A stretch of 57,850 nucleotides of DNA from a virus (Duplodnaviria; Caudoviricetes), in IMG/VR virus record IMGVR_UViG_3300025655_000041, positions 1-57,850 of that record, one strand, 5' to 3'. The translations under genes were made by a program, and so were the position numbers. Each line of letters opens with the position of its first letter. Within the stretch, counting starts at the first letter, position 1. The notes below the pieces were generated by a model. It worked only from the letters and a program-made list of their open reading frames with translations. It did not search any database and had not been told where the DNA came from. Shown here one piece after another: positions 629-27,400 of this stretch.

Positions 629-629
629 T

Positions 630-7987: not shown

Positions 7988-7992
7988 CTGGA

Positions 7993-8012: not shown

Positions 8013-8024
8013 GGCAGTCGCCCA

Positions 8025-9975: not shown

Positions 9976-9987
9976 AAAGGAAACGTT

Positions 9988-11499: not shown

Positions 11500-11686
11500 C
11501 ATTAGGAAGTATAAGGTTATTCCGAATGAACGTGCAGAGGTAACTGAAGAAGATTGGGATGAAGATCTAATCGATCTATTTAATAACAAGCAGCAGAAAG
11601 CTGAAAAGATTATGAAGTCAGATAGAGCTAGAAACCGAAGGAAGGAAGCTCGATATGCCAAAGAAGATAGAATATACGGAAAGTAA
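11459..11686 (+). CDS. Hypothetical protein
   Basis: GGAG RBS with TTG start. Confidence 0.55.
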   Translation: MKSPKTIRNPYHNDIRKYKVIPNERAEVTEEDWDEDLIDLFNNKQQKAEKIMKSDRARNRRKEARYAKEDRIYGK

Positions 11687-13316
11687 AGAAATAGGTAAGA
11701 CAGCTTGTCCCGCTTGTCCTTCAAGCGATGGCTTTGCTGTATACGATGATGGACACGGTTACTGCTATGTATGTAACCATTATGAAAAAGAAATCGGAAA
11801 GGAAGAGGAAATGCCTCTTGATACTAACACACCTAGCCTTGAGCTATTTGAAGCAAACCTCGGCGATTGTCGTGGTGTACAAGACCGTAGGATAACTAAG
11901 ACTATTGCAGAACACTACGGTGTTCGTGTTAACTATGATAGTAACCGCAACATTATTGCTTATAACTATCCTTACTATGCGGATACACACCACCCTATTG
12001 CCTACAAAACAAGAACATTACCTAAACAATTCAAGACAGTAGGAGACTTTAAAGATGTTTGGCCTTTCGGCGTTCACGCTTTTCATGCGGGAGGAAAGAG
12101 ACTTGTCATCACTGAAGGCGAGTTCGATGCGATGGCGGTCGCGCAAGCTTCGTATGACCACTATAATAAGATCTATCCTGTCATTTCAGTAGCAAGTGCT
12201 TCTAACCTTAAGAGTCTTCTTCATGCTCGGACATGGATTAGATCCTTTGAGGAAGTTGTTCTGTTCTTTGACAATGATACTGCAGGACAAAAGGCTATTA
12301 AAGATGCTGCTAATATTATCGGTATCGATAAAGTAAAGATAGCTTCTCTAGGTAGCGTAGCTAAAGATCCTTGCGAACTATACTTAGCTGCAGGACATCA
12401 AGGCGTTATGCGTGCTATATGGGATGCACAACCCTATAGTCCAGCGGGTATTGTCGTAGGGCATGAGCCTGTATGGGAGCAGTACTTAGCGCGACACGCA
12501 ACTGAGTCAGTGCCTTATCCAGATTGCTTTAACGGTATCAATGAGAAGACTAAAGGTATGCGCTTTGGTGAGATAACCTTGTTTACTTCTGGTACTGGCA
12601 GCGGAAAAAGTACTGTCATTAAAGAAATTGTACTTGACTTATTAGACAAAACTAGTTATAAAATAGGTATGATCTCTCTTGAAGAGAGTATTGGCGATAC
12701 CGCAGAAAAGTTTATTCAGATGAAACTTAAACAAAACCTGCAAGAGTTCGATGTACCCTTAGAAGTACAAGAAGCAGCATCAAAGGAGGTGTTCGGTAGT
12801 GAACGGCTTGTATTGCTTGATCACCAAGGTTCTGTTGGTGATGAGTCACTCATTGATAAGATTGAGTATATGGCTCTTATGGGTTGTAAGTATCTTATTC
12901 TCGATCACATTACAATTGCAGTATCAGAGGGTGCAGAAGGTTACTCTGGTAATGAGGCTATCGACAAGGTTATGTCAGACCTACTTAAGATTACTAAGAA
13001 GCATGACATCTGGCTTGGAGTTATATCTCATCTACGGAAAGTACAAGGCGGTGGTACCACATTCGAACAAGGTAAGCTGCCTAGCATGGATGATATCAAA
13101 GGCTCTGGATCCATCAAGCAAATCTCTTTCGATATTATCGGGTTCTCTAGAGATATGGCTAATGCAGATGAAGAAGTTAGAAACACTATTGAGTTCATCG
13201 TACTCAAGAGCCGCTTTTCTGGTAAGACAGGACCGGCGGGTTCGGTTAAATACAACCATAAGACTACGCGGTTAGAGTATAATAATAAAAACATTGACTT
13301 TGAGGTGTTACCATGA
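11655..13316 (+). CDS. Primase-helicase (T7 gp4-like)
   Basis: Zn finger CPAC...CYVC; TOPRIM ITEGEFD and FDND; Walker A GTGSGKST; LDHIT; GSGSIKQ. Confidence 0.95.
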   Translation: MPKKIEYTESKEIGKTACPACPSSDGFAVYDDGHGYCYVCNHYEKEIGKEEEMPLDTNTPSLELFEANLGDCRGVQDRRITKTIAEHYGVRVNYDSNRNIIAYNYPYYADTHHPIAYKTRTLPKQFKTVGDFKDVWPFGVHAFHAGGKRLVITEGEFDAMAVAQASYDHYNKIYPVISVASASNLKSLLHARTWIRSFEEVVLFFDNDTAGQKAIKDAANIIGIDKVKIASLGSVAKDPCELYLAAGHQGVMRAIWDAQPYSPAGIVVGHEPVWEQYLARHATESVPYPDCFNGINEKTKGMRFGEITLFTSGTGSGKSTVIKEIVLDLLDKTSYKIGMISLEESIGDTAEKFIQMKLKQNLQEFDVPLEVQEAASKEVFGSERLVLLDHQGSVGDESLIDKIEYMALMGCKYLILDHITIAVSEGAEGYSGNEAIDKVMSDLLKITKKHDIWLGVISHLRKVQGGGTTFEQGKLPSMDDIKGSGSIKQISFDIIGFSRDMANADEEVRNTIEFIVLKSRFSGKTGPAGSVKYNHKTTRLEYNNKNIDFEVLP

Positions 13317-13504
13317 GCGAGACTGCTTTATACCACCAAATAGGATTACTTCAACAAGAACTTGCTCATGCAAAACAAATCATTGAAGAGTTGACTATGG
13401 AACGGAATAAATTTCGTAGTCAAGCTCTCATGAGGGCAAATAAAATAGAGACATTATCAAATGAGATCAATAAACTTTATACGGAACAAGAGTATATCCC
13501 CTAG
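13313..13504 (+). CDS. Coiled-coil hypothetical protein
   Basis: GAGG RBS, ATGA overlap. Confidence 0.65.
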   Translation: MSETALYHQIGLLQQELAHAKQIIEELTMERNKFRSQALMRANKIETLSNEINKLYTEQEYIP

Positions 13505-13631
13505 CCTAGAGATTATTAAGCTATTAAATAATCTTAGGTCAAGGAACATTGAGCCTATTGACTGGCACTATGATAACAACTTCATAACCTTTAGAGTAGA
13601 GGATGAGGACCATGGCGAAGAAAGCAGATAA
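13461..13631 (+). CDS. Small hypothetical protein (56 aa)
   Basis: Fills the gap. Confidence 0.4.
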   Translation: MRSINFIRNKSISPSLEIIKLLNNLRSRNIEPIDWHYDNNFITFRVEDEDHGEESR

Positions 13632-13728
13632 GAGTAAGGATTACTTCCTTCTTAAACCACGCAAACAAAAAACTTTCACAGGAAAGAAATATGCAGAACG
13701 TAAAAAGTATCGAGGACAAGGTCGATAA
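13612..13728 (+). CDS. Small basic protein ending KKYRGQGR (38 aa)
   Basis: GAGGA RBS; C-terminal YRGQG motif that I recall from a widespread small phage protein. Confidence 0.75.
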   Translation: MAKKADKSKDYFLLKPRKQKTFTGKKYAERKKYRGQGR

Positions 13729-13747
13729 CAACAAAGGTTTTATTACC

Positions 13748-14182
13748 ATGACAACCAAGGAAGAACGATATGATACACTCTATATGGACATCGCTAAACG
13801 CGTTGCTGAAATGTCTTATGACATCGATACACAAGTTGGCGCAGTCATCGTCAAAGATGGCAACATTATCTCAATGGGCTGGAACGGTACTCCAAGCGGC
13901 TTTGACAATAGCTGTAAACACCCTGAAACGGGTATTACTTTATCTACTGTTATTCATGCTGAAGCTAACGCAATCTGTAAGCTCGCTCGTGCTAGCGGTT
14001 CTGGATTGGGTTCCACACTGTACACTACGCTCTCACCTTGTATCGAGTGTACTAAGCTTATCCTCCAATCTGGTATCAGCGAAGTTGTCGTTGAGAAAGC
14101 GTATGAGAAAGATCTAGAAGGATTTAAAATTCTTAATGAGAAAGGTATGCTAAGGGTATGCAAATCCATTACCAAAGAATAG
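13748..14182 (+). CDS. dCMP deaminase
   Basis: VGAVIV, GWNG, HAEANAI and SPCIEC zinc-deaminase motifs. Confidence 0.92.
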   Translation: MTTKEERYDTLYMDIAKRVAEMSYDIDTQVGAVIVKDGNIISMGWNGTPSGFDNSCKHPETGITLSTVIHAEANAICKLARASGSGLGSTLYTTLSPCIECTKLILQSGISEVVVEKAYEKDLEGFKILNEKGMLRVCKSITKE

Positions 14183-14427
14183 AGAATATGCCTGATTACA
14201 TTGCTTGGGTACAGTGTAATCCTGAAGATCGCAGTCAAGTAGAAGAAATGTTTCCTAAAGATGAATACACTTTATTGATTGCACTAAAGCCTAACTATGA
14301 CCCTATTACTTGTTCACAGCAAGTACTTTACAATCCACCCGCTCCAACTTGGGGCTTAGATGTATGGAAGAAAGAGGACGATGGAAGATATACGGAACTA
14401 TCTACTAGAGAGAATCCGCAGCGATAA
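14158..14427 (+). CDS. Hypothetical protein
   Basis: AAGG RBS, packed ORF. Confidence 0.6.
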   Translation: MQIHYQRIENMPDYIAWVQCNPEDRSQVEEMFPKDEYTLLIALKPNYDPITCSQQVLYNPPAPTWGLDVWKKEDDGRYTELSTRENPQR

Positions 14428-16498
14428 CATAGGTGTTAAGCCTAGACGCAGCCTACAACTTATGCGTATGATCGACACTGATGGTGTTGATATGCTCGAC
14501 TTCCTAATCGAAGATATGATTATCTACGGACGTAAGTTCATTCAGCGTTGTTTTAAGCGCAGCAAAGTAGAGGGTGAAACCCCTATTACGCAAGCTTCAA
14601 TGGCTATCGGCAAGTATATTGTTGAGGGCTGGGACAGTAACAACGTTAACTTTAGAGACCATGTTCGTGTTGGTGATCTTATCATTGAAGGCTTTGTTAT
14701 GTGTGGTTATCTTACTATATCGGTAGGACACATGAAGAGCCGTAAGCCAGTTACAATCCATGCCACTGAAAAGTGGGGTGAAATGGAAGTTGTAGCTGGC
14801 AAAACTACTTGTATGAGTGCAGAGCCAATCCCGCCTATCACTAAACTATTTCAAGACAATGGTAGGGCAGTGATTAAAACTTGGGATAAATCTAAAGAAC
14901 ACTTGTTTATGAAGTATATTAATGCACCTTTTGTAAAGGCAATCGATAGACTACAATCAACTAGATATCGTGTCAATACAGAAGTTAACCAAGCCATTAA
15001 AGAAAATATGTTTATGTTTATTAAGAACGAAACATTTAATGGTGAAGATAAAGAAGAAAACGCTAAACTGTATCAGCGTCAAGCCTCTAAAAATCGAGAG
15101 ATTAAAGAGGTAATGGCAATAGCAGACAAGTGGCTAGGTGAGTCATTTAGTTTTTATATTGATGCAGATTACCGTGGTCGGCTATACTATAGCGAACCCT
15201 TCTTTAACTTTCAAGGTGCTGACATTGCAAGAGGTCAATTACTATTTGACGAAGGTAAACGCTTTGATGAGTCTGCTAGCTTTTGGTTAGCCGTTCATAC
15301 TGCTTGTTGCTTTAACCAGTCATATGGTATTGATGAAATCCCTGAGTGGACTACAAGCGATTACCGTTCTGTACTCGAAGAAGAAAACTTGGACACTATC
15401 TCAGTAGATAAAATGACTTTAGAAGATCGCGCTCAGTGGACTCAAGAAAACATTGATGTCATTGTTGAGATGGGTGAAATGCGAATGATCGCAGAAGAGG
15501 CCGAGAAGGCTATCTCTTTCTTAGCCTGTTGCATCGAGTGGTACCGCTACAGCACTACGGATGGGGACTACTATACTCGACTTCCAATCCCCATAGACGG
15601 TGCTAATAACGGCTGGCAACACCTAGGTGCTATGTCTAAGGATGCACTAACGGGTAGACTTGTTGGTCTTGTTCCTACCGAAATCCAGAACGACTTCTAT
15701 GTACAGATAGCTAAGAGGCTATGCGACAGGATGCCTGAATGGTTTGAAGAAAGACAGATTCCAATGAAGCATATCCGTAAGGGCATTGCTAAACGTGCAG
15801 CCATGACTCGTGCTTATAGCTGTGGTCAAAAGAAAATGTCTGAGTCTATGTATAGCGACTGTTATCAGTACGGATTTACTAATGACTACAACATTTCTAC
15901 CTGGGATTGCGATGAGCTAAGTAATCAGGTTATTAGGGCTATCCAGGAAGTTTGCCCCGGTCCTTTAGATACTATGAAGTATCTGCAGCGGTTAGCTGAT
16001 CAGGAGATTACTAACTGGTATAAGCAGTATGGTACTGATAGAGGTAAAGGTATCGAGTGGACTACACCTTCAGGCTTTCCTGTGATATACGAATGTTATC
16101 GTACTAGACCTGTTAAGGTAGACTGTTACGGCTTCAATACTCCTGATGGAGAGATCCGCTTCAAGCACGTTATTAGGGAGCATACAGACATCCCTGATCG
16201 TAGAGGCTTTATGTGCGGTATTAGCCCTAACTTTGTACATAGTATGGATGCTAGTCATATGGCTCTTGTTATAGCAGACTGGGAAGGAGACTTCGCTGCT
16301 GTGCATGACTCTTATAGCGCTCACGCTGGTAACGTAGAAGATCTTATGGTTAAGACAAGACAAAAGTTTGTTAGTATCTACGACAAAGAAAACTTCTATG
16401 ATACAATACCCTTTGGTAAGGGCTTCGAAGGAGTAGTACCTACTATCGGTAAGCTATCTATTAAGGATGTTGCTGATTCTACTTACTTCTTTTGTTAA
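14381..16498 (+). CDS. T7-family single-subunit RNA polymerase (short, ~705 aa)
   Basis: DYRGR, FNFQG, motif A IDGANNGWQH, motif B RKGIAKRAAMTRAY, WTTPSGF, PNFVHSMDA, motif C VHDS. Confidence 0.95.
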   Translation: MEDIRNYLLERIRSDNIGVKPRRSLQLMRMIDTDGVDMLDFLIEDMIIYGRKFIQRCFKRSKVEGETPITQASMAIGKYIVEGWDSNNVNFRDHVRVGDLIIEGFVMCGYLTISVGHMKSRKPVTIHATEKWGEMEVVAGKTTCMSAEPIPPITKLFQDNGRAVIKTWDKSKEHLFMKYINAPFVKAIDRLQSTRYRVNTEVNQAIKENMFMFIKNETFNGEDKEENAKLYQRQASKNREIKEVMAIADKWLGESFSFYIDADYRGRLYYSEPFFNFQGADIARGQLLFDEGKRFDESASFWLAVHTACCFNQSYGIDEIPEWTTSDYRSVLEEENLDTISVDKMTLEDRAQWTQENIDVIVEMGEMRMIAEEAEKAISFLACCIEWYRYSTTDGDYYTRLPIPIDGANNGWQHLGAMSKDALTGRLVGLVPTEIQNDFYVQIAKRLCDRMPEWFEERQIPMKHIRKGIAKRAAMTRAYSCGQKKMSESMYSDCYQYGFTNDYNISTWDCDELSNQVIRAIQEVCPGPLDTMKYLQRLADQEITNWYKQYGTDRGKGIEWTTPSGFPVIYECYRTRPVKVDCYGFNTPDGEIRFKHVIREHTDIPDRRGFMCGISPNFVHSMDASHMALVIADWEGDFAAVHDSYSAHAGNVEDLMVKTRQKFVSIYDKENFYDTIPFGKGFEGVVPTIGKLSIKDVADSTYFFC

Positions 16499-16551
16499 AT
16501 AAAAAACCCCACAAGGTTTCCATTACGGATTCCCTGTGGGGTATTTTTATT
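16497..16551. terminator. Bidirectional intrinsic terminator between the convergent arms
   Basis: AAAAAACCCCACA...TGTGGGGTATTTTT with A and T tracts on both sides. Confidence 0.88.
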
Positions 16552-16812
16552 TTATGTTAGTAGTTTTTTAATTCCGTCTTTAGCTTGTTTACGGAGGCGA
16601 CCAGCTTCAACTTGAGCTTGTTTACGATCCATACCTTCGTTAATAAAGTTATCAACGTTTTTATTATATACTACGTCTAGTACTGCAAAGTTAAGTTTAG
16701 GGGTGTAAGCTAGTGATGGGTCAAGATTGTATTGCTTAACAAACTCCATGTCATCAAAATCTAATCCTTGTAGCGCTAGTTTATTATAGTTCTTTTTAGT
16801 ATTCACTTTCAT
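16552..16812 (-). CDS. Hypothetical protein, last late gene
   Basis: GAGGA RBS. Confidence 0.75.
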   Translation of the reverse strand: MKVNTKKNYNKLALQGLDFDDMEFVKQYNLDPSLAYTPKLNFAVLDVVYNKNVDNFINEGMDRKQAQVEAGRLRKQAKDGIKKLLT

Positions 16813-16824
16813 TTAACTGTCCTC

Positions 16825-19800
16825 TTAGTTATATTGGTAAATTACTTTTGAAATGAGCTTCCAGATTTTACTTTTTAAAGACTCATTTGCTTTATGCCGT
16901 TGTTCTAAATCTGAAATAATTAGCTTCTGAGCTGCAATATCGCTGATAAGACCTTCGTAAGCTTGCATAGAAATTTCACCCCCTTCAGGACGCCATCCAG
17001 CTTTAATAGCTCTATCTAATAGCTTTTGTGCTGGACCTCTTAAGTTTACTTTAGGTACAGCCTTACGCCCTTCTGTTGTTTCGAACTCAGCGGTAAGCTG
17101 GTCTAACCCTTGGCTTAGCATTACTAAATGATCGTGCAATGCTCGATACTCACTCTCATAGTTTACCGCAATTTTCATTCCAGGATTACGTGCAGCTTTA
17201 GCTCGCATACTTGCCATTGCCGCTTTAAGCCCATCGGTTATTGCTTTAGAAATAGAGTAATTCATATTCACTTGTTTGAATTGATTATTTATTTCTCGAT
17301 GGTAAGCCTTAACACTAGTTGCATCGGTAATAATTGCGTCATGTACCGGCATAACAAATGCTGCGCCTTCCTTACGTACTCTTGCCATGTCATTTACTTT
17401 CATAATAGTATTAGCCATTACTGCAGCATCTATTTGTTGGACTGTAAGAACAGGTAATTGATTAGCCACAAGTTGTCCGAATCTAGATCTATCGGCTAAA
17501 CGATACTTGCCTGTTTCAGGATCAAACACTCGCATCCTAGTACGTTTACCCGCGCTACCAGTAGCTCTAGCTTCTGTCATCTCTAAGTTAACAATACCTT
17601 CTTCTGTTTGAATAGGAATAGTTCTTCCTGTTCTAAAGTGTTCATTAGTTCCCATATAAATAGTTGTACCTAACGGACCCACTAACTCAGGAACCACACC
17701 TAGCATTGCCCATAGTTTACCTGCGTTTTTATACAACTGTTGTTGTTGTAGGTTAAGAATAGTAAGGCCTTGTCCAATTACGTTATTAAGATCGCTAATG
17801 CGATCCATTCTAGAGTAGTCAGAAAGGTTTTCATGTCGTGCAATTACTTTAGCAATAATGTCTTTACCTGCGTCATCAATAAACTCCTGTGCGGTTTCCA
17901 TATGGAATCTAGCTGGCATACCGTATGATGTTTCCATCAATGGAACTTTAGATAATGCTTTAACCATATCGCTGCGTTGGTCTGCTGGTAACTCATAAAT
18001 TTCAGTTAATACTTCTGACCAAAAGTTTTGCTTATCGGGGTTATGTGCAAAAGGAATACCTATTTGCTTCATAGCGGTATCTAAGAATTTATCACGAATA
18101 TCTCCTTGTGATAAAATATTTCCTTCGTCGCCAAAAATAACACCAACTCTTTTCATATCATCAGTATCACCATTTTGCAACGCTTGAATTGCAATACCGT
18201 TTTGCTTTCCATCATGTTGAACTTGTGCTTTAAGTTCTAATGAATTTAGTCCTTTAGTTTTTGCATCATGCCAATTAGCAAAGTCAATAAACGCTTGTAG
18301 CTTATAACCCCAATCATCATTCTTCTTAAGGGAGGATTGATGTAGTCTACCTGCATTTGTAGCTTGATTAAATGTATTCATATCCCCAGACTTAACTGCA
18401 GCTCGCAATGCCTGCCCTTGACGTAACCATGTTTGATATACCGGATCATTTGGATTTGACATAATTGATTTAGTAATATCAATTATATTATTCCAACCCA
18501 TGTCTTCTGTACGAAGACCATTAGTTGGGTTGTAGTTATTATCTAAATCTGGGTCTAATAAATTTTTACCAATTATATAAGTCCAATTTTCCATAATCTG
18601 TTTAGTAATTTTATCACCGGACTTTATATTAACTAAAACTTTTTTAGCACTGCCAACAATATTTCTTACTAACTTGTCTGTTTGGTAGTTAAGCACTGTA
18701 TTACGAACAAAGTAACGACCTACAGAGCTAGCGTGCATATATTTATTGTAATATACTTTACCTTGGTTAGCAGTTGCGTCATTCATTGTGCGTATTATCT
18801 TTCGGGCTTGCATACGCATTACTTTATTAGCTTGATCTTGAGCGTCTACTTCTCTTCCTTCACCAAATCTTTTCTTAGCATTAGAATATGCTTCTAACCA
18901 TTTAGCTTCATGTAGACCTAATGTTTTTGCCCACTTATTATTGCTAAAAAACAGGCCGCCTGGAGCTGCATTTATTAACGTAATACGATCTGCTTCCCCC
19001 GGACCAGCAGGTTCTAATTGAATTACTGAAGCGACAATCATTTTAGCATAAGCAAAACGATCGTCATCAACTCGCATAGGTATAGTAGAAAGCCTTAACT
19101 TTACCGCATCTTCAAAAGCAGTATTTTTAGATGTTTTATTTCGTTTAGAAAGAGGCTTAGCTTTTTCGCCTAGCTCTCGTTCACGCCCTGGAAATTGATT
19201 TACTGCAGGTGGCAAGTAAGCAACGTTAACTCGGCGATCCGGCTGGATATCTTCTAAGATGCCTCTGTTTGCTCTAAAGAAAGCTTCCCCTTCTTCAGTT
19301 AGAACTAGTCGTTCATCTTTTAAATCTGTATTAGGATCATTAGCATTCAAATCAATTGCTTGAAATAGATTTTGTTCTGGTGTTGTAAACATATCATAGA
19401 TTAAGACATCTAGTGCTGCCTTAACATCTGGATCTAATGCTGCACCAGCACCGCCATATCCCATTCTAATATTTGGATCACCCATTTCATTTGGATTAGG
19501 GAGAAGTTTATCTGCTAAAGAAGAAGCCATGCGTTCGCGAATAAGTTCAGGGTCAAAAATACCATCGCCTGCAGCTTGTTCGTCTCTCATAGAAGAAACA
19601 TCTAGTGACTCATCAGTCTTGTTAAATACATCTGCTGCAGTTTCTAAGAAAGTAATTGCTAATGCATTTCCTACACGGTCAGTCATACGACCAGAAGTTT
19701 GATCAAATAATTGTGTTGAAGCTAAAAACCCTTGAACCTTGCGAGACACAGGATCGTCTGCCATAAGCATTGGCGAAATTCGTTTACTTAAAGTATCATT

Positions 19801-20367
19801 AATAAACGAACCTCTAGCAATTATATTACCATAAACATCACGACCTTGTTGTGCTTGAGGTATTGTTGAACGCATTTCATCTGCACTCTGTGCAGCATAT
19901 GTTTCTGTTGTAGCACGAGTTGCTCTTTCAGTTTGACTTTTTATTTCTGATTCTATTTGCTTATTAATAAAGGCAGGATCGTTTGAGAAAGGAGTAGTCG
20001 CCATTGGTTGAAGATCAAAGCCTTCTGGCGCTTCTTCCCCTGGAGTTTCATCTAGTGCATCTGCAGTAGTAGCAACAATACTCGGATCAAATGCACCCGC
20101 TTCAATTAATGATTGTGTTAGCGGATCAAATGACTCTTCAGCTTTTACTCTTGCTTCTGCTGTTTCAGAAGTTTCGGTACTGCCTGGAGGTAACGCTTGA
20201 ATACGTGGCTCCTCACCTAAAGGTTGAGCAATATAATCCGGACGGGCTGCTTGATCTTTCTTTGAGAGTAAATCTAATGCCTGTTCGTCTTGCACTATTT
20301 TTCTAAATTCATCTTCTTGTGCTTCTCTTGCAATCTCAGCAGGAGTTTTTTTAAATGTTAGTTTCAT
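16825..20367 (-). CDS. Second, divergent single-subunit RNA polymerase; putative virion-encapsidated RNAP
   Basis: SSVGRYF..LNYQTDK (DxxGR-like), motif A QHDGKQNG, GDIR, motif B LSKVPLMETSYG, PVLTVQQIDA, motif C VHDA, all in canonical order; follows the internal virion genes. Confidence 0.82.
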   Translation of the reverse strand: MKLTFKKTPAEIAREAQEDEFRKIVQDEQALDLLSKKDQAARPDYIAQPLGEEPRIQALPPGSTETSETAEARVKAEESFDPLTQSLIEAGAFDPSIVATTADALDETPGEEAPEGFDLQPMATTPFSNDPAFINKQIESEIKSQTERATRATTETYAAQSADEMRSTIPQAQQGRDVYGNIIARGSFINDTLSKRISPMLMADDPVSRKVQGFLASTQLFDQTSGRMTDRVGNALAITFLETAADVFNKTDESLDVSSMRDEQAAGDGIFDPELIRERMASSLADKLLPNPNEMGDPNIRMGYGGAGAALDPDVKAALDVLIYDMFTTPEQNLFQAIDLNANDPNTDLKDERLVLTEEGEAFFRANRGILEDIQPDRRVNVAYLPPAVNQFPGRERELGEKAKPLSKRNKTSKNTAFEDAVKLRLSTIPMRVDDDRFAYAKMIVASVIQLEPAGPGEADRITLINAAPGGLFFSNNKWAKTLGLHEAKWLEAYSNAKKRFGEGREVDAQDQANKVMRMQARKIIRTMNDATANQGKVYYNKYMHASSVGRYFVRNTVLNYQTDKLVRNIVGSAKKVLVNIKSGDKITKQIMENWTYIIGKNLLDPDLDNNYNPTNGLRTEDMGWNNIIDITKSIMSNPNDPVYQTWLRQGQALRAAVKSGDMNTFNQATNAGRLHQSSLKKNDDWGYKLQAFIDFANWHDAKTKGLNSLELKAQVQHDGKQNGIAIQALQNGDTDDMKRVGVIFGDEGNILSQGDIRDKFLDTAMKQIGIPFAHNPDKQNFWSEVLTEIYELPADQRSDMVKALSKVPLMETSYGMPARFHMETAQEFIDDAGKDIIAKVIARHENLSDYSRMDRISDLNNVIGQGLTILNLQQQQLYKNAGKLWAMLGVVPELVGPLGTTIYMGTNEHFRTGRTIPIQTEEGIVNLEMTEARATGSAGKRTRMRVFDPETGKYRLADRSRFGQLVANQLPVLTVQQIDAAVMANTIMKVNDMARVRKEGAAFVMPVHDAIITDATSVKAYHREINNQFKQVNMNYSISKAITDGLKAAMASMRAKAARNPGMKIAVNYESEYRALHDHLVMLSQGLDQLTAEFETTEGRKAVPKVNLRGPAQKLLDRAIKAGWRPEGGEISMQAYEGLISDIAAQKLIISDLEQRHKANESLKSKIWKLISKVIYQYN

Positions 20368-20414
20368 ACTAATCTCCTAGTATGGACGGTACCTTTGGAG
20401 TACCGCCCGTAGGT

Positions 20415-23400
20415 TTATTTTAAAAGAATATCTCTTACTTCATTAGCCGTTGGTATATCAATATCAGGAAATGGGTTTTGCCCTGTTACACCTTTACCAA
20501 TTGAATGTCTTAGTCCTGTAAATGGTGCAATATAAGGAGCAGCACCAGCTAGTTTAGCTACTCCACGTTCACCTTCACCACTAAGCAAATCACCTGTTGC
20601 TTCAAATACTCTTTGAATATTTCTAGCAGAAGGCCCACTCTCGCCAAACAATATACTAAAGCTATTATCGCCACGAGTAGGATATAGCGGTTTAGCTGCG
20701 TCTAATACTTTTTCGTATTGACCTAGTACACCTGAAGAATACAATGCTCTTTGAGCATAGCCCATTTCATCTAAATAAGGGCTAGCTTGACCAAACTTAA
20801 TAATATCTTTTAAGTGTTGCGAGGCAGCGCCTAACGCTATCATTGTAACAATCATTGCAAAGGTATCGTACTTTACTTGAGGAGTACCTTTTCTTAGTTG
20901 TTTATTCCAAAGCTTAGGCACAATGTTTGCGGTAAAAGTACTAATAAATCCATTGAATTGAGTGAAGAGTTGATAGTGCGGATCCTGAAAAAACAAGGGT
21001 CTGTTAGCAGCCCCCGGTAATTGAACTCGTTCTTTAACAAAACGGTATACTGCTAGATCCATAATATCATTTAACTTGTCTTCTAGCTTAGCTGCAGCTT
21101 CAACAACACTTGCGTCACGCGGTACTGCATTATTTGATTGCATATTACGGATAGCTTTTCTTAAAGCCTTAACTCTTTTGCTAGGCGACTTAATATACAA
21201 TGCATCTGTTTTATCTACTGATGAGTCTGTCTTATCTAAAACATTAAAGACTTCATCACGGTAAACTTGATCTAAGTCAGATAACAATTCCATCATTTCA
21301 TCTGGATTGATACCTAAATCGAGAAGTTGATTATAAGTTCTTATTTCAATCTCTGACATTTTATCAAAGTCGAATCCACCTGTTTCAATACGGAAGCCAG
21401 ATGCTTTACCGGCAATAGTAATTGGTACTCTTATTTTCTTCCGTGGAGCTAAGTCTAATATATCAAATCCAGACTTAACAAAATCAACTGCTAATCCTGC
21501 TGCCATTCTTCGTTGTATTTGAGTTACCTTCGTAAGACCAATACCTTTAAAGAATGACTCATGTAATCGCATAAATGCGACATCACGCTCACCTGTTGCT
21601 AAACGATCTACCACTGAGCTGGTGTCAGCACTCTGGCCTACTTCCTTAAGCAGCTTTTCGGTTTTAGCAACTTCAGCAGCTAAGGCTTTATCGAACGCTT
21701 GCATTACCTGATTAGTTAGTTGTTTAGTTGCAGCTTTAAACTCAGCATCAGTCTTTAAGTTAAAAAATAACAACGCAGTTTCTGGTATAGAAGATAAAGC
21801 TGCTAGTGGGAGGCCAGCAAGCAATGACCAACTTGTTAAGAAAGAATTAATTGCTGCTGCTTTTTTGCTTTCAATACGATTAAAGTTACCATGAGTACTA
21901 TCGATAATTGAAGTCATATAGTAGGCAAATTTATCTATTTCTGCTTTACTTAAATCAGAGCCAGGTAGTGATTGTTCTTCCACTAATTGCTGAAACATCT
22001 TGTTTAACTTGCGACCGCCATGACCAAAGTAGTCTGTTACTGAAGAATACTTAGCAGCATCCATTCTGTTACGATGTAATGTTTCAAACATATTATCGCT
22101 AGACCAGTCACTAAAATTTGGTTTTTCAGTTATCTTAAAAAAGGCACGTTTCACTGAATTAGGTAAATAAGTAACGCCATTAATTAGTGATGCGTTAGTA
22201 TTAACTGTACCCTGTCCTTGACGAACAATACTTTCGTATAGCTCTTGTCTATCGTCTTCAGTTAATTGAGAACCAAGGTTAGTTTTAAGCCATTTCATAA
22301 AGCCTTCTTTATTTGCTTTAACTTTTTTCCAATCAAAACCTTGATGTTGCCACCAATAATCAGGATTATAACCTATCGTATCACCAGTCTCTCTTGTATA
22401 AGATCCACTAATTTTTTCATGTGCTTTATCATAAGAGTTTTTAACTTGTTTAGCTGCAATATAAAGCTTTTTCATTTCAACTTCTTGATCAACAGTTAAG
22501 TTAAGCTCGATCAATCCTGCGTTATTAATATTTGCTTTTGCAACATCTCTATAACGTTTGATTTGAGCAGGCTCAGTTAAACCTAATCCTGCCAACGCTT
22601 GTTTTGCAGCGGCGCGTTGTTGTGGCGTAGAGCGAACATCATAATAGATATTAACAAGCGGGTAAGCACCTAAACGGCTTAACGTATATGCTTCATACAA
22701 ATCAAATTGTCCAGATCTACCAAACTCTCTTAGCTTACGGCTAATGGCTTCTACATTTTTAGTTTTAAGCTTACCGAACCCTAATAACTTACCAATTCCA
22801 GGCTCATCAACTAACGCAGTCATTTCTCCCATTGTTAAGTCATGCGCCTCTTTAAAGTTTGCACCTGAGTGATATCTACCTGTAGTATCTGCACCAATTA
22901 ACGCAAAGATTTTCATAGCCATTGGACTCAGCACAAGCTTTTCCATATTGATAGCTGCTTTTTCAGAGGCTAAAACTAGTTTAGCTGCACCCTGTATAGC
23001 TGCATCTACAAAATCTTTAGGATCTTTAATGTTTCGAAGGGTATTCATTAATCCTTGTTGATCTACAATATAAGAATCGTGTGCTTGACGACGAGCTTCA
23101 GTCCCGTTATCCCGTAAACCTTCTGCTTCCTCAATAATGTTTTCAACATCTGGAATTATAACTCCGTTATTTGCATCTTCAATTCTTTTATTTTCAATAA
23201 CATTGTTTCGATCGGCACTATAAAGCCCACGATCTAACGCCATAAGCTTATTCTTACCTTGTTGATGGATATTGTTTGCCATTGATAGCGCACCACCAAC
23301 AGAACCCCCTGCTAATGCTGCGTTGATTGCTCGATCTAAGAGTTCTTCTTGAGTGTAAGTGGTTTCAGATACACTAGCAGCAACTGCTGTTTGAATAATA

Positions 23401-24713
23401 TCTTGTGCTACTTCGGTACTTGCTTCAGTTCCCATTCCTGTCAAGCCACGCCGCGCAATTTCACCTACACTAAATTTAGCAATGTCTTTAGGATTAAGTC
23501 GAAGAGCAAGTTCTTTAGTATATTTACCCACTTCTTGGCGGGTTACATTAAGTAGTTTATTTCTAGCTTGGTCAATTCCAATACCTTGTTTTTGAGAGAT
23601 ACTACGAGCTACTTTTTCAAAGCCTTGTTTACTGAGGACTTGTCCTGGCTTTACTAATCGTTCCAAACCAAAGCGTTCAAGTGCCGACATACCTACACCT
23701 GCCATTGAAGCAGCTATAAACTGTGTAACACCCTTTTCGCCTTCCATCTCATTCCAAGTTTGTCCAGCCATAGTCATAGCTAACGGTGTTGTAGATGCAG
23801 CTAATGCACCGCCTGCCCCAATAACGGGTGTAAAAGGCGCGGCAACTGCCATTGACCCAAAGGCTAACATGATCTGGGGAACCATCATTGCTGTGTTGTT
23901 AAGTACATATTGAAATCCAGTAGACACACTGTCAATATCTTTATAATCTAATACAACTTCAGGCGCATCCATCATCCGCTGCTTGGCACGTGAAACTCCT
24001 GCCTCACCGAAGCGTTCTAGTGATTCAATACCAAAGGTTTCACCGATTGCATCTGCATAACCAAACAACCCTTCTTTAAGCCCTTCAATACCTTGATCAA
24101 AGCTTACCCCCATAGAACCTATAAAACCAATTGCTTTGTTATCAATTGTTCTATCTGGATTACGGAATTGTACTCCTGTATGCAGATCAGGATCATAATA
24201 CCTTTCGTTTAAGGCAAGTGTTTTAAACTCTTTACCAAGCCGATCTACATAATCGTTATATTCATTTCCAATTTCTCTAAATGGAATTTTATCATCACCG
24301 TATATTGCTGCAATTAAATCAGCTTCTTGTTTAGCGATAATACCACGTTCAGGGGTGAATTCATTTATTTCTGCAATACCAGCGGCGTAAAGAGTTTCCA
24401 TGAGGTCTTGACCTTCTGGATTTGTACTTGTAATAAGTTCTCTTTCGCCTTCACTAGTATCGTAATTACCACTGTAATCAATGTTAGTAAAATTACCTTC
24501 ATTAATTACAGTAGCAATTGCTTCTTTTTGTTTGTTACCACCCTTCTCGCCAGGCTTATAGACAAATTTACCATCTTCTTCAACAACCTTTTCGGTTTCC
24601 CGACCATCAAAGCCTGAATACCTGTACCGTTTTCCTGACCGATCGGTAAGGGTATCCGGATCAATTAACAGTTTAGAGTTACCATCGCTGTCAATAAAAG
24701 AATTATCTGCCAT
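20415..24713 (-). CDS. Large internal virion / ejection protein (1432 aa)
   Basis: Size, position after the tail genes, Gly/Ala-rich hydrophobic segments. Confidence 0.65.
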   Translation of the reverse strand: MADNSFIDSDGNSKLLIDPDTLTDRSGKRYRYSGFDGRETEKVVEEDGKFVYKPGEKGGNKQKEAIATVINEGNFTNIDYSGNYDTSEGERELITSTNPEGQDLMETLYAAGIAEINEFTPERGIIAKQEADLIAAIYGDDKIPFREIGNEYNDYVDRLGKEFKTLALNERYYDPDLHTGVQFRNPDRTIDNKAIGFIGSMGVSFDQGIEGLKEGLFGYADAIGETFGIESLERFGEAGVSRAKQRMMDAPEVVLDYKDIDSVSTGFQYVLNNTAMMVPQIMLAFGSMAVAAPFTPVIGAGGALAASTTPLAMTMAGQTWNEMEGEKGVTQFIAASMAGVGMSALERFGLERLVKPGQVLSKQGFEKVARSISQKQGIGIDQARNKLLNVTRQEVGKYTKELALRLNPKDIAKFSVGEIARRGLTGMGTEASTEVAQDIIQTAVAASVSETTYTQEELLDRAINAALAGGSVGGALSMANNIHQQGKNKLMALDRGLYSADRNNVIENKRIEDANNGVIIPDVENIIEEAEGLRDNGTEARRQAHDSYIVDQQGLMNTLRNIKDPKDFVDAAIQGAAKLVLASEKAAINMEKLVLSPMAMKIFALIGADTTGRYHSGANFKEAHDLTMGEMTALVDEPGIGKLLGFGKLKTKNVEAISRKLREFGRSGQFDLYEAYTLSRLGAYPLVNIYYDVRSTPQQRAAAKQALAGLGLTEPAQIKRYRDVAKANINNAGLIELNLTVDQEVEMKKLYIAAKQVKNSYDKAHEKISGSYTRETGDTIGYNPDYWWQHQGFDWKKVKANKEGFMKWLKTNLGSQLTEDDRQELYESIVRQGQGTVNTNASLINGVTYLPNSVKRAFFKITEKPNFSDWSSDNMFETLHRNRMDAAKYSSVTDYFGHGGRKLNKMFQQLVEEQSLPGSDLSKAEIDKFAYYMTSIIDSTHGNFNRIESKKAAAINSFLTSWSLLAGLPLAALSSIPETALLFFNLKTDAEFKAATKQLTNQVMQAFDKALAAEVAKTEKLLKEVGQSADTSSVVDRLATGERDVAFMRLHESFFKGIGLTKVTQIQRRMAAGLAVDFVKSGFDILDLAPRKKIRVPITIAGKASGFRIETGGFDFDKMSEIEIRTYNQLLDLGINPDEMMELLSDLDQVYRDEVFNVLDKTDSSVDKTDALYIKSPSKRVKALRKAIRNMQSNNAVPRDASVVEAAAKLEDKLNDIMDLAVYRFVKERVQLPGAANRPLFFQDPHYQLFTQFNGFISTFTANIVPKLWNKQLRKGTPQVKYDTFAMIVTMIALGAASQHLKDIIKFGQASPYLDEMGYAQRALYSSGVLGQYEKVLDAAKPLYPTRGDNSFSILFGESGPSARNIQRVFEATGDLLSGEGERGVAKLAGAAPYIAPFTGLRHSIGKGVTGQNPFPDIDIPTANEVRDILLK

Positions 24714-24724
24714 TATTAGCTCCT

Positions 24725-27391
24725 TTATTTTTTGTTAAGAAGGGCCATTGCCTCTGCATGATGATCACCTTTTTGACGACCTTGTAGTCCATCCGCAAGT
24801 AATTGTGAAACCCAATAAGTGTAGTCGTTATGTTCTGAATCATCAGAAGGTTTCATGCCAATAAACTTAGTTCCTTTACTATGAGCATCCCACTGTTTAG
24901 ATGCTCTTTTCCAAAAGCCTTTATAGACCTTTGCTGCATCATCAGGGTTTCTAGTTTTCTTGCCAGCAAAATCTAGTACTTGATCATTCAACTCTAATAC
25001 TTTAGCAATGTCTGCACCCTTAAGATCATTAGCACTAACGGCACCTTCAGTATTAACAACCATTGCTCTCTTATTATAAAAAGAAAGAACACTATTTGGT
25101 TGTTTACCGCCAGTTGCATTTGCCTTTTTAACTGCATTCCAGTAATCATCTTGCGCACGAAGTGCTTCTGCACGAAGTTTTGCTTTAGCCTCTGGTCTAC
25201 CCTTAGCAAATGTTTTTACATCGCTTAGATAACGATTAGATAGCTCAGTAGCCTCGATTGCACCTTCAGTATCAATTCGTTTTCCATTTTGGTCTACAGC
25301 AGCATTGATATTACTAATTTTATCTTTAGCTCGCTTGGCAAAGTAGTCTTCAACTTCTTGAGCATTATCATACTTAGGATTATGCTTTTGAATTTGACCT
25401 TTCATTAAAGGAGAATCGAAAGAATAATACTGACCATTGTATTCAATGGCATACTTATCTTTTCCTACTTTAACTGTTTGGAGAGTACCAAGTGTATCAT
25501 GCTCGATTAAATCACCAAAGCCTTGAACCGTTGTTCCTGTTTTCCTTTCAATAAGATCATCACGATTACCAGTTTTAAGATATTTATCAAGTGATTCTTT
25601 GGTATACAGCTCCATAAAGTCTTTATCACGAACATCTTTTTGGCGCTGTTCAATAGCGCTGTCATATCGCTTAACAAACTGTTTAGCTGAATAACCTAAT
25701 GATGCATTATGATCATAACCTAAAGCTCTTGATCCCGCATACATAATTGCCATACGCGAAATTTCTTCTGGAGTAAACATGTCACTAAATATATCTTTAA
25801 ATCCAGTTATAATAGATTGCATAAAGCTAGGTTCTACCTTCTCACCTTTTTCTTCAATTTCTTTAGCCTTGGCTGCAGGAACTTTTTTATTATCAGGAAT
25901 ATTTTTAAGTAGATCATCAGCAAGAGTGTTTAACGCTGTAGCCTTCGAATCTGCTGGCTTTGGAGGCGCTTTATTTTCTTCAGGCACATAGCTTTGTGCT
26001 TCAGCAACAGCTTTTTCGTCGGCTACTTTAGTTGCAGCTCGATCACTTAACTCTTTTGCTTGAGTAGCTTTAGAGTCTGCTAATTTCTTAACGGCATCTT
26101 TATGCATTTGAACAAGTTCAGGAGTAACTGTTTCGTTATTAGCTTTCTTTTGATTAATAAGATTAGCTAACCTTGCTTCATTTTCAGTATCATTTTTAAC
26201 AATAGCTGCATTAACATTAGTCATTCCAGGATCTTCAGGAAGTACATCAAAAATATTAGGAACAGGAACACCAGGGGCATCTGCATCTACTGGTAAACCT
26301 GCAAATTCTAAGGGATACATTGCAAAACGCTTTGCTTGATCTGCAATACTAGAGAGGTCCGTAGGTTTTGCAGTTGTTGCTTCAGTTGCAAGCCTCTCAC
26401 CTAATGGCGTTGGCGGGACAGCTGCGATTTCAGGGACTTCTCTTGATACCATCTTAGCTTGATTATCATCAAGATAAACTTCACCTTCTGGTGTCATAAC
26501 GAATTCACCCAAGTCATCTGAGTAAACCTTTTGATCTCCAAGGGTGCCTATTACTGTTCCTGGTACTGTACTAACCTGTCTACGAGTAACACCAAACTTA
26601 TCTGGACCAGACATATTATCCATTATTTTACCAGCATAAGCTTGTCCACGTGGTCCAAGCGCTTCTGTTCCAGCCTTAGCTTTGCGAACATTACCTGCAC
26701 CAGAGTGATAAGCAGTAAGTACTTCTTCAGGAGTAAAGTCAGGATTAGCGCTAGCAATACCTGTTAAATAATTCCTAGCAAATTCTCTAGACTTAACAGG
26801 ATCACGGATATCTTCTACTGCAAGCGGAGGAACATTCATTCCAGGTTGTTGAGCTGTTGCTGGCATAATCTGATAAAGACCTTGCGCTCCTACCTCAGAA
26901 GTAGCCATAGGATCACCTGAAGATTCAACCATTTTAAGGCTGTCAAGTACTTCATCGGTTAACCAAGAAGGAACCTTACTACCTACAGCAGCATACATAG
27001 GCCCACCGTCTCTATCACCAAGCCGTTGACCAAGACTATTTAGCATCCCATCATAACGAGGTACTTCCATTCCACCAGCAGCATAAGTAGGAATAGGTCC
27101 ACCTTGTGCTTTTTGTATCATGCGACCTTGCTCATTCATTTCATCAATTTTTTCTTGATTACCAGGAAGACGAGATGCTTCAGCATTAACAACATTCTCT
27201 CCAGGGGTTAACCACGCAGGGACTGTATCAGTGCCCTTAGGCTCTCCAGGGTGTGTGCTAGAGTCTGCACCGTTATAACCGTCTACTTTAGGGATAATCA
27301 TCATCATAGGTACAGTAAGGTCTGGTTCGAAGAATTCGAAAGATGTCATGTTTCCATAACGGTCTTTCTGTGAAAAACTTTTTAGTTTCAT
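24725..27391 (-). CDS. Internal virion protein with lytic transglycosylase (SLT) domain
   Basis: VESSG...GAQGLYQIMPATA...AYHSG; N-terminal GTDTVPAWLTPGENVV motif. Confidence 0.85.
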   Translation of the reverse strand: MKLKSFSQKDRYGNMTSFEFFEPDLTVPMMMIIPKVDGYNGADSSTHPGEPKGTDTVPAWLTPGENVVNAEASRLPGNQEKIDEMNEQGRMIQKAQGGPIPTYAAGGMEVPRYDGMLNSLGQRLGDRDGGPMYAAVGSKVPSWLTDEVLDSLKMVESSGDPMATSEVGAQGLYQIMPATAQQPGMNVPPLAVEDIRDPVKSREFARNYLTGIASANPDFTPEEVLTAYHSGAGNVRKAKAGTEALGPRGQAYAGKIMDNMSGPDKFGVTRRQVSTVPGTVIGTLGDQKVYSDDLGEFVMTPEGEVYLDDNQAKMVSREVPEIAAVPPTPLGERLATEATTAKPTDLSSIADQAKRFAMYPLEFAGLPVDADAPGVPVPNIFDVLPEDPGMTNVNAAIVKNDTENEARLANLINQKKANNETVTPELVQMHKDAVKKLADSKATQAKELSDRAATKVADEKAVAEAQSYVPEENKAPPKPADSKATALNTLADDLLKNIPDNKKVPAAKAKEIEEKGEKVEPSFMQSIITGFKDIFSDMFTPEEISRMAIMYAGSRALGYDHNASLGYSAKQFVKRYDSAIEQRQKDVRDKDFMELYTKESLDKYLKTGNRDDLIERKTGTTVQGFGDLIEHDTLGTLQTVKVGKDKYAIEYNGQYYSFDSPLMKGQIQKHNPKYDNAQEVEDYFAKRAKDKISNINAAVDQNGKRIDTEGAIEATELSNRYLSDVKTFAKGRPEAKAKLRAEALRAQDDYWNAVKKANATGGKQPNSVLSFYNKRAMVVNTEGAVSANDLKGADIAKVLELNDQVLDFAGKKTRNPDDAAKVYKGFWKRASKQWDAHSKGTKFIGMKPSDDSEHNDYTYWVSQLLADGLQGRQKGDHHAEAMALLNKK

Positions 27392-27400
27392 TCTATTCTC

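Follow-up and report, generated by a model that had tools for sequence, protein, structure and literature searches.

A compact, stand-alone homolog of the N4 virion RNA polymerase encoded among the DNA-ejection proteins of a marine short-tailed phage

The virion RNA polymerase (vRNAP) gp50 of phage N4 (Schitoviridae) is a giant protein of about 3500 aa, in which a central 'mini-vRNAP' domain (aa 998-2103, 1106 aa) is flanked by N- and C-terminal domains; gp50-type proteins as a group span ~2800-3800 aa. Transcription in N4 proceeds from the vRNAP to the T7-like RNAPII (gp15/gp16) and then to the host RNAP. The N4 vRNAP has been described by Hardies et al. as embedded in a homolog of the internal virion protein IVP-D, the Schitoviridae literature proposes the vRNAP domain as an ejection motor, and cysteine suppression is described as a feature of the Schitoviridae ejection operon. 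The enzyme has been treated as a hallmark confined to Schitoviridae; an ExDGxxxG motif has been used as a family filter (PMC10654107), and one metagenome survey explicitly discarded vRNAP-related proteins shorter than 2500 aa. The multisubunit virion RNAPs of phiKZ-like phages and the giant crAss-like virion RNAP follow the same idea of a packaged polymerase that starts infection independently of host RNAP, but are two-barrel enzymes of unrelated fold. Here we describe a compact homolog of the N4 enzyme in a ~58-kb marine podovirus of the CRP-7 type, which is not a ~70-kb schitovirus. The window analysed is the whole stretch of 57,850 nucleotides.

An earlier note, made from the sequence alone, had pointed to a second, highly divergent T7/N4-family RNAP at 16825-20367 (-), and this observation holds. 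The ATG-started ORF encodes 1180 aa and carries the T/DxxGR, A, B and C motifs of single-subunit RNAPs in the order that the note had given and at matching coordinates. The T/DxxGR motif SSVGR (aa 547-551, nt 18715-18729) is followed by LNYQ, and its R551 aligns with N4 R424 and T7 R425. Motif A, QHDGKQNG (aa 717-724, nt 18196-18219; ~18197-18217 in the note) within QVQHDGKQNG, contains the catalytic D719, aligned with N4 D559 and T7 D537. Motif B (K-VPLMETS-YG, aa 807-816, nt 17920-17949; ~17921-17949 in the note) lies within KALSKVPLMETSYG (17920-17961), and K807 and Y815 align with N4 K670/Y678 and T7 K631/Y639. PVLTVQQIDA (aa 972-981, nt 17425-17454) is the counterpart of PNFVHSxD in T7-like RNAPs, with D980 invariant within the alignment designated A1. 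Motif C, PVHDA (aa 1007-1011, nt 17335-17349; 17335-17346 in the note), contains the catalytic D1010, aligned with N4 D951 and T7 D812. In a 40-sequence alignment at about 18% identity, R551, D719, K807 and D1010 are among 11 invariant columns, and Y815 and G816 are at least 90% conserved.

Profile-profile comparison with hhalign places the family closer to the N4 vRNAP core than to T7-like RNAPs. A 150-sequence family profile matched N4-type cores with Prob 99.1 and E 9.6e-19 over 463 columns (residues 537-1054 aligned to mini-vRNAP 411-994) and the T7-like family with Prob 94.8 and E 5.2e-8, with the motifs in register in both cases. For scale, N4 against T7 gave E 5.2e-9, whereas reversed-template controls gave E 0.87 and 0.59. 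The A1 profile extends the N4 match to residues 175-1087 against mini-vRNAP 85-1017 (E 9.8e-15). In PHROGs, 12 of 38 members hit 'virion RNA polymerase' (best E 4.1e-11) and 14 of 38 hit the T7-like RNAP family. By tblastn, a distant member hits 17 Schitoviridae records, over their vRNAP genes where annotated (E 2e-5 to 2e-4). The 1180-aa protein itself hits no Pfam or NCBIfam RNAP model (no PF00940 hit at E <= 1, against a gathering cut-off of 22 bits), and PDB sequence and profile searches found no RNAP; however, 3 of 40 distant members hit PF00940 at E <= 0.01 and one passes the cut-off at 26.7 bits. The family is large, with 340 representatives at 50% identity, and every database name we saw for it is blank or 'hypothetical protein'. 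Among cultured phages it was found only as the 'hypothetical' gp33 of roseophage CRP-7.

The protein consists of about 880 aa of RNAP flanked by two extensions. Residues 1-175 (19843-20367) form an acidic, low-complexity N-terminal extension (D+E 19%; over aa 61-130, D+E 23% against 3% K+R), in agreement with the acidic N-terminus described in the note, and aa 1055-1180 (16828-17205) form a C-terminal extension of about 125 aa; neither has a detectable homolog by hhalign, and neither shows similarity to the gp50 terminal domains. Residues 176-536 (18760-19842) are a probable RNAP N-terminal, promoter-binding-type region: they are covered by the A1 match to mini-vRNAP, and language-model neighbours carry PF14700 RPOL_N (0.94-0.92), which is a lead only, but on its own this region gives no significant hhalign hit. 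Residues 537-1054 (17206-18759) correspond, by profile alignment, to the polymerase core (palm and fingers), homologous to N4 mini-vRNAP and T7-like RNAP. In size the protein resembles mini-vRNAP but is one third of gp50, and no fused form is longer than 1464 aa among the 150 best of the 340 representatives. None of the four Pfam vRNAP domain models that N4 mini-vRNAP hits (PF21867, PF21624, PF21894, PF21769) is hit at E <= 1. The K-x-P-L start of motif B is shared with N4; in motif A the protein has Q, not E (QHDGKQNG), while the consensus of the distant family members is AExDGNSNG, an ExDGxxxG-type motif. The T7-like enzymes belong to the same superfamily but are much more distant than N4. 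The phage's own, canonical one-piece T7-like RNAP lies on the opposite strand, as the note had stated (14360/14381-16498 (+); PF00940, E 2.6e-55), and the N4-type protein is about 470 aa longer and encoded on the late arm among virion genes.

The gene lies at the end of an ejection-protein operon. Upstream of it are genes for a 276-aa protein (27401-28231 (-)), an 888-aa protein with an SLT lytic transglycosylase domain (24725-27391 (-); PF01464, E 1.4e-17; phrog_342, internal virion protein with endolysin domain, E 3.1e-10) and a 1432-aa internal/ejection-type protein (20415-24713 (-); phrog_6958, virion structural protein). The gaps are 9-47 nt, with 11 nt between the 888-aa and 1432-aa genes and 47 nt before the RNAP gene. 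The operon recalls the podovirus internal virion proteins (T7 gp14-gp16; IVP-D) in its SLT domain, cysteine suppression and strong mosaic divergence, but here the RNAP is a separate polypeptide and not a domain of an IVP; the 888-aa and 1432-aa proteins did not match gp50 or phrog_2206 either. In 42 of 42 related loci the gene is the last large gene of an SLT / ~1300-aa / RNAP operon, and in 34 of the 34 loci that hold the upstream region it is downstream of the ~1300-1430-aa protein. It converges on a T7-like RNAP arm in 40 of 42 loci, the other 2 ending too early to show it, and the T7-like RNAP is split in 2 of 25 distant loci. N4 gp50 is likewise the last gene of the minus-strand arm, convergent with the plus arm.

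Composition and inheritance also link the RNAP to the ejection proteins. There is no cysteine in its 1180 residues or in the three upstream proteins; the probability of 0 Cys in 1180 aa at the frequency of the other genes is 1e-4. Of 149 family members 134 have none and none has more than 2, and 118 N4-like gp50 proteins have a median of 0 and a maximum of 1. By contrast, the T7-like RNAPs of these phages have a median of 11 and a minimum of 6 (16 in this phage), and cytoplasmic enzymes of the same genome have 1.4-2.3% Cys. The RNAP gene belongs to a hypervariable cassette of five genes (16552-28231), of which the 276-aa gene is the first. The cassette diverges to 22-45% identity between phages whose replication genes stay 75-98% identical, and in two loci its genes fall to 22-57% identity while their flanks stay 89-98% identical. 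The RNAP is therefore inherited together with the ejection proteins.

Two distinct promoter-like classes were found. Composite elements at the left end, each with an upstream motif, a hairpin H1, 3 nt and a hairpin H2, occur only before the first ORFs, at 128-201 (+) before the first and 629-688 (+) before the second, and are candidate early promoters or 5' leaders. H1 carries G.T wobbles on the coding strand in 13 of 16 copies, which fits an RNA 5' structure better than an N4-style template-strand DNA hairpin. The H2 pattern is absent from 5 of 5 records carrying the most divergent RNAP types, although a variant copy was then found by eye in one of them. The second class is a T7-like CCCTTATAGGG motif before the DNAP and TerL genes. 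A candidate phage-type promoter, ...AAACGCCCTTATAGGGAGAGG, lies at 7987-8013 (+) before the DNA polymerase gene, with similar copies at 3866-3892 (+) and at 57304-57330 (-), the latter before the large terminase gene. Since T7-type promoter-like motifs precede a late gene, TerL, host RNAP may not be needed at all, in contrast to the N4 programme, but its use for early genes is not excluded: a scan for sigma-70 sites was uninformative, with 42 sites against 42.5 expected.

We consider it more likely than not that the gene encodes a catalytically competent DNA-dependent RNAP of the N4 vRNAP lineage, in effect a natural mini-vRNAP. In this view, it would be made late, as the last large product of the ejection-protein operon, packaged in the capsid with the other products and passed unfolded through the tail and ejectosome into the cell, which would explain the absence of cysteine. 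It would then transcribe the left-end early genes, helping to draw in the genome and leading to expression of the T7-like RNAP, which would serve promoters of the CCCTTATAGGGAGA type for middle and late genes. A polymerase made only from the late operon would be of use at the next infection only if it is packaged. The homology, the conserved active site, the operon position, the composition and the behaviour of the cassette rest on the data presented here, while packaging, ejection, RNA synthesis, template and timing are inferred, packaging with indirect support from expression in the late operon, the absence of cysteine as in Schitoviridae ejection proteins and the shared cassette, but without virion proteomics for this phage or for CRP-7 in the literature read. 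Exchange of the cassette between backbones with similar early regions is awkward for a strictly sequence-specific early polymerase. The interpretation in the earlier note, of a stand-alone mini-vRNAP that is ejected with the core proteins, transcribes the early arm and may pull the genome into the cell, is partly supported: its N4-like identity, compact stand-alone form and place in the ejection operon are borne out, whereas its proposed functions remain inferences. The note had also called the pairing of a T7-like replication module with two single-subunit RNAPs an unusual architecture, but N4 itself pairs its vRNAP with RNAPII, and shares with this phage an N4-type RNAP encoded on the late arm plus a T7-like RNAP encoded on the early/middle arm; what is unusual is a compact stand-alone vRNAP beside a full-length one-piece T7-like RNAP on a CRP-7-type backbone. 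If the protein is packaged, the RNAP module can be separated from the ejection-protein scaffolds to which it is fused in N4, the protein is a natural minimal vRNAP for biochemistry, and host-RNAP-independent early transcription would extend to a phage group described in the CRP-7 paper as abundant and widespread in marine viromes, with a cultured member in which this can be tested directly. More tentatively, CRP-7-type podoviruses may run their whole infection without host RNAP, an ejected mini-vRNAP starting at the structured left-end elements and the T7-like RNAP reading CCCTTATAGGGAGA-type promoters through the late genes. As the cassette is swapped or diversified between otherwise near-identical phages, early-promoter recognition would then have to be either cassette-independent (structure-based) or co-evolving.

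Among the alternatives, it is possible, although unlikely, that the protein is an active RNAP that is not packaged and works in the cytoplasm late in infection as a second intracellular polymerase, for example on a subset of late genes, in replication priming or in transcription-coupled packaging. The homology and the conserved active site fit this reading equally well, and no packaging domain like the gp50 C-terminal domain was found, but the position within the ejection operon, the joint inheritance and the absence of cysteine, as in gp50 and the structural proteins, argue against it. Slightly less likely, the protein could be packaged and ejected but act mainly as a DNA-translocating or ejectosome component, with host RNAP making the early transcripts. 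This agrees with the proposed motor role of the vRNAP domain, and cassette exchange is easier to accept if strict promoter specificity is not needed; however, no enrichment of sigma-70-like sites and no strong site at the left end were seen, in what is a weak test, and full conservation of the NTP-binding and catalytic residues, including the ribose-discriminating Tyr, indicates that RNA synthesis is selected for. A catalytically dead, RNAP-derived structural protein is very unlikely: the divergence is extreme, with no Pfam hit and 22-45% identity between near-identical phages, but dead enzymes lose the catalytic residues that are invariant here. A chance resemblance of short motifs in an unrelated large protein, for which only the lack of hits in PDB sequence searches speaks, is in practice refuted by the hhalign matches and their reversed controls, together with the PHROG, Pfam and tblastn links through family members.

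Only an 86-aa ORF (16552-16812 (-)) follows the RNAP gene at the end of the late arm; it is conserved, and is inverted in the distant group of relatives. Between the convergent arms, at 16499-16551, lies a bidirectional terminator-like hairpin with A and T runs (z -5.4 and -5.9). The window is a complete genome, with a direct terminal repeat at 1-126 that is identical to 57723-57848.

The window is a complete phage genome of about 57.7 kb bounded by a 126-bp exact direct terminal repeat (1-126, identical to 57723-57848). The repeat ends in a terminator-like hairpin followed by ten T residues at about 88-126 (z -3.4), which may insulate the early arm from read-through around concatemers. A plus-strand arm (1-16498) carries small early ORFs, two Gp2.5-like SSBs, a family A DNA polymerase, an exonuclease, a primase/helicase, a dCMP deaminase and, as its last gene, a T7-like RNAP (14381-16498), which matches PF00940 at E 2.6e-55. 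The minus-strand arm runs from the right end inward and carries the large terminase, portal, scaffold, major capsid, tail fibre genes, RNR and tail proteins, followed by proteins of 276 aa, 888 aa (SLT, PF01464, E 1.4e-17) and 1432 aa (phrog_6958), the 1180-aa ORF 16825-20367 (P0001) and an 86-aa ORF. The two arms meet at a bidirectional terminator-like hairpin at 16499-16551 (z -5.4 and -5.9). The closest cultured phage is roseophage CRP-7, whose T7-like RNAP is 33% identical over 99% of the query. CRP-7 has the same layout, and its gp33, gp34 and gp35 (1235, 1368 and 1223 aa) are all annotated as 'hypothetical protein'.

The observation made in the earlier note, that the 1180-aa protein carries the ordered motifs of a single-subunit RNAP behind an acidic N-terminus, is confirmed, and every element it listed is present to within a codon of the place it gave. 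The N-terminus is acidic: over aa 61-130 D+E amounts to 23% against 3% K+R. Direct searches with the single protein are nearly blind. The only Pfam match to P0001 was to Globin at E 0.088, no RNAP was found in NCBIfam or by phmmer in the PDB, and profile searches of the PDB gave no RNAP either; an AVR3a4 hit at E 0.0038 covers a 50-aa helical stretch and is regarded as spurious. Similarly, tblastn against 50,697 phage records gave no hit for P0001 or for a further query, P0075, and CRP-7 gp33 hit only itself. The only direct signal is a match to phrog_2206, 'virion RNA polymerase', at E 4.4e-6 over aa 973-1076.

The protein does, however, belong to a large family. A word-index search found 41 proteins at E <= 0.001 among 8000 scored candidates, none named beyond 'hypothetical', and an exhaustive search found 340 representatives at E <= 0.001, of which 252 are at <= 1e-10 and 90 at <= 1e-30. 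The full-length proteins among the 150 representatives listed are about 1000-1464 aa. Of 38 close members, 14 hit the T7-like RNAP PHROG and 12 the virion-RNAP PHROG (best E 4.1e-11), whereas of 40 distant members 3 hit PF00940 at E <= 0.01, one of which passes Pfam's own cut-off. A distant member, P0099, hits 17 Schitoviridae records by plain tblastn, over their vRNAP genes where these are annotated, and the language-model neighbours include clusters in which 65-91% of members carry PF00940 (score 0.95).

Profile-profile comparison required family profiles on both sides, as the family profile compared by hhalign with the single T7 sequence gave only E 0.56. The family profile (150 sequences, P0001 first) matched a T7-like family profile (80 sequences, headed by P0002) with Prob 94.8 and E 5.2e-8 over 393 columns. 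It matched an N4-type core set of 15 sequences (N4, ten Schitoviridae from different genera and four close N4 relatives) with Prob 99.1 and E 9.6e-19 over 463 columns, aligning P0001 537-1054 to mini-vRNAP 411-994. For scale, the N4 set against the T7-like set gave Prob 95.9 and E 5.2e-9, and the family profile against reversed N4 and T7-like templates gave E 0.87 and 0.59, respectively; all of these E-values are for a single template. The close members alone (A1) matched the N4 set with Prob 98.4 and E 9.8e-15, aligning P0001 175-1087 to mini-vRNAP 85-1017, and the distant members (A2) with Prob 99.2 and E 2.8e-19, aligning P0001 264-830 to mini-vRNAP 195-694. Because an unrooted tree of three groups without a usable outgroup cannot show which two are sisters, kinship was judged from these profile scores.

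In the alignments R551, D719, K807, Y815 and D1010 pair with N4 R424, D559, K670, Y678 and D951, and the equivalent residues of T7, checked against its sequence, are R425, D537, K631, Y639 and D812. Across members that are only about 18% identical just 11 columns are invariant, which include R551, D719, K807 and D1010, while Y815 and G816 are at least 90% conserved. A second alignment started from another member gives the same set. The protein is therefore an RNAP of the T7/N4 superfamily, nearer to the N4 vRNAP, with an active site under selection. The region aa 176-536 probably corresponds to the RNAP N-terminal domain, based on the extended A1 alignment and, as a lead only, on language-model neighbours that carry PF14700 (0.94-0.92). 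The first 175 and last 125 residues match nothing: aa 1-536 alone and aa 1036-1180 alone gave no significant match to N4 gp50, mini-vRNAP or T7-like profiles, the best being E 0.0048 with Prob 7%.

That the protein is carried in the virion is inferred from four indirect lines that agree. First, the gene closes the ejection-protein operon, with gaps of 9, 11, 47 and 12 nt between genes. In 17 IMG/VR loci found with the close family and 25 found with the distant family, the gene is present in 42 of 42. A homolog of the 1432-aa protein, of ~1240-1800 aa, lies directly upstream in 34 of the 34 loci that hold that region, and a T7-like RNAP lies on the opposite strand downstream in 40 of 42, the other two loci ending too early. 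N4 gp50 occupies the same position, as the last gene of the minus-strand late arm converging on the plus arm. Second, by inference, an RNAP expressed only with late structural genes would be of use mainly if it is carried into the next cell.

Third, P0001 and the three proteins upstream have no cysteine in 3776 residues, for which the probability at the frequency of the remaining genes is 1.7e-13 (1e-4 for P0001 alone). In contrast, the cytoplasmic enzymes of the genome have 1.4-2.3% Cys and its T7-like RNAP has 16 Cys. Of 149 family members, 134 have no Cys and none has more than 2, and 118 N4-like gp50 proteins have a median of 0 and a maximum of 1, whereas 80 T7-like RNAPs of these phages have a median of 11 and a minimum of 6. 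Cysteine suppression has been described in the DEV paper as a conserved feature of the Schitoviridae ejection operon and linked to passage through the periplasm.

Fourth, the five consecutive genes at 16552-28231 behave as one hypervariable or exchangeable unit with sharp borders. In the related locus L028, identity to the proteins of the window is 98% for the T7-like RNAP, 98% for the 156-aa and 92% for the 215-aa protein, but 58% for the 276-aa, 53% for the SLT, 43% for the 1432-aa, 37% for the RNAP-like and 56% for the 86-aa protein; the DNA polymerase is also 96% identical and the primase/helicase 97%. In a second locus, L052, the corresponding values are 89%, 97% and 94%, and then 56%, 44%, 29%, 24% and 38%. 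The cassette thus drops to 24-58% identity while both flanks stay 89-98% identical, which ties the RNAP to the ejection proteins, and at least three deeply divergent cassette types exist on similar backbones. Ejection proteins are reported to be mosaic [PMC8954989]. The conserved ~85-aa ORF at the convergence point (16552-16812, minus strand, in the window) lies on the strand of the RNAP-like gene in the close group (13 of 17 loci) but on the opposite strand, behind the T7-like RNAP arm, in the distant group (23 of 25 loci); the gene has been inverted. In 2 of 25 distant loci (L069, 14902-17836, and L070, 5110-8042) the T7-like RNAP is split into ORFs of about 440 aa and 300 aa with about 700 nt between them, which recalls the two-subunit N4 RNAPII or may be an insertion.

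By analogy with N4, the enzyme would be ejected and would transcribe the left end of the genome, and matching signals were sought. The first two ORFs are each preceded by a composite element (128-201 and 629-688), consisting of an upstream motif (consensus TAGCCTTCT in relatives), a hairpin H1, three bases, a 16-nt hairpin H2 (AGGRYA-N4-TRYCCT) and an A, followed 17-47 nt later by the start codon. The 27-nt core occurs twice in the window against 0 expected by chance, and as RNA the two elements fold into two adjacent hairpins (z -4.3 and -5.9). Sixteen copies were collected from the window and five related records, always before early ORFs next to the terminase-proximal genome end; copies occur in loci L037, L039, L040, L041, L042, L043 and L074, and the elements lie only before the first early ORFs. 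In 12 of 16 copies an H1 of at least 8 bp ends exactly 3 nt before H2, which happens 2.6% of the time in shuffled sequences. H1 sequences differ widely (GGGTAGC..., GGGAGA..., CTACGCA..., GACTACA...), and in the first-gene copies the H1 loop holds a CUCCUCCC-like (anti-Shine-Dalgarno-like) run. H2 shows changes on both sides in 3 of 6 pairs and its covariation score was matched by 0 of 500 shuffles; however, the copies were collected with a scan that required at least 5 of 6 pairs, so that their 95% pairing is biased and only the changes on both sides of a pair carry weight. When co-variation of promoter and polymerase was examined, the H2 pattern was absent from 5 of 5 records with the most divergent RNAP types, although a variant copy (CGTCCT 3' arm) was seen by eye in one of them (L074).

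A different, T7-promoter-like motif (AAACACCCTTATAGGGAGA) lies before the gene at 3937, before the DNA polymerase gene and before the large terminase gene. The CCCTTATAGGGAGA sites are at 3866-3892 (+), 7987-8013 (+) and 57304-57330 (-), with a variant near 49340 (-), and the conserved form, AAACACCCTTATAGGG(A/G)(G/A), recurs in the relatives L037-L040; these are candidate promoters of the T7-like RNAP before middle genes, the DNA polymerase gene and the large terminase gene. Two promoter-like classes for two phage RNAPs is an attractive but not established reading. H1 usually starts with GGG or GGA and carries G.T wobbles on the coding strand in 13 of 16 copies, which looks more like a 5'-terminal RNA stem-loop than an N4-type template-strand DNA hairpin. 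If so, the promoter would be the TAGCCTTCT motif and recognition need not resemble that of N4. A sigma-70 scan of 1-17000 gave 42 sites against 42.5 expected, which neither supports nor excludes use of the host RNAP. Among RNA libraries, 21 metatranscriptome runs contain at most 0.20 of the sampled words of 1-9000, and contigs of 4 runs compared with 1-20000 cover 3336-20000, including the RNAP gene, some with no differences, with next to no cover of 1-3335; as these libraries may contain DNA, they support no conclusion on expression, transcript ends or the uncovered part. The two Gp2.5-like ssDNA-binding protein paralogues (2940-3446 and 5592-6116, plus strand; E 5.8e-5 and 5.6e-13) are candidates for a cofactor, since N4 vRNAP needs an SSB at its promoters.

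The protein is homologous to the RNAP domain of N4 gp50 and would work like it, but it is not a member of the gp50 family as that family is defined: it is a third of the size, lacks the terminal domains, fails the four Pfam vRNAP models that mini-vRNAP hits and sits in a non-schitovirus backbone. Hardies et al. described the N4 vRNAP as a cytoplasm-destined domain embedded in an IVP-D homolog, whereas here the same kind of domain exists as a free-standing gene next to the large internal proteins. The three large cassette proteins (16825-27391) add up to 888 + 1432 + 1180 = 3500 aa, exactly the length of N4 gp50, which raised the idea of a split gp50. However, the 1432-aa and 888-aa families did not match full-length N4-like gp50 (E 0.29-0.39), using a profile that was shallow because all its sequences are more than 70% identical, and neither protein hit phrog_2206. 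Hence this idea is not supported, but it is not excluded. A metagenomic survey of N4-like viruses removed vRNAP-related proteins under 2500 aa as 'T7-like', which would have hidden this family. The CRP-7 paper [PMC6918029] reports only ORF30 as an RNAP, and we found no paper, subscription journals not being covered, that describes a second RNAP in CRP-7-type phages [PMC6918029, PMC12629253, PMC4819975, PMC11705849, PMC10654107, PMC11445570, PMC10747016, PMC4496689, PMC10386132, PMC13434306].

Taken together, the interpretation in the earlier note, of a compact virion RNAP that is ejected and transcribes the early arm, is supported in part. The RNAP identity is nearly certain and the N4-type kinship highly likely, and these rest, as do operon position, composition and cassette behaviour, on what the sequence comparisons demonstrate. 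Polymerase activity, packaging in the virion, ejection and transcription of the left end are inferred, and packaging with an early role is considered somewhat more likely than not. What is new is a large uncharacterised family of stand-alone N4-type RNAPs, in a phage group reported as abundant in marine viromes and with a cultured representative, whereas the homologous RNAP domain of N4 gp50 is already known.

Elsewhere in these genomes, one relative (L073, record G006) has on the reverse strand, at about 8660-9275 of the locus, an ~600-nt leader at its left end that is almost free of A on the coding strand and is followed by an A-poor first ORF; the first 200 nt of the window are also A-poor (10-15% A). 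An ORF at 10864-11499 (+), between the exonuclease and primase/helicase genes, has hits to homing-endonuclease PHROG families and a stronger hit to a family labelled 'NAD synthetase'. In-frame 21-nt and 42-nt tandem repeats and longer internal repeats are present in tail fibre genes, at 46256-46940 (-) in the 427-aa tail fibre gene and at 38900-39900 in the 854-aa gene.
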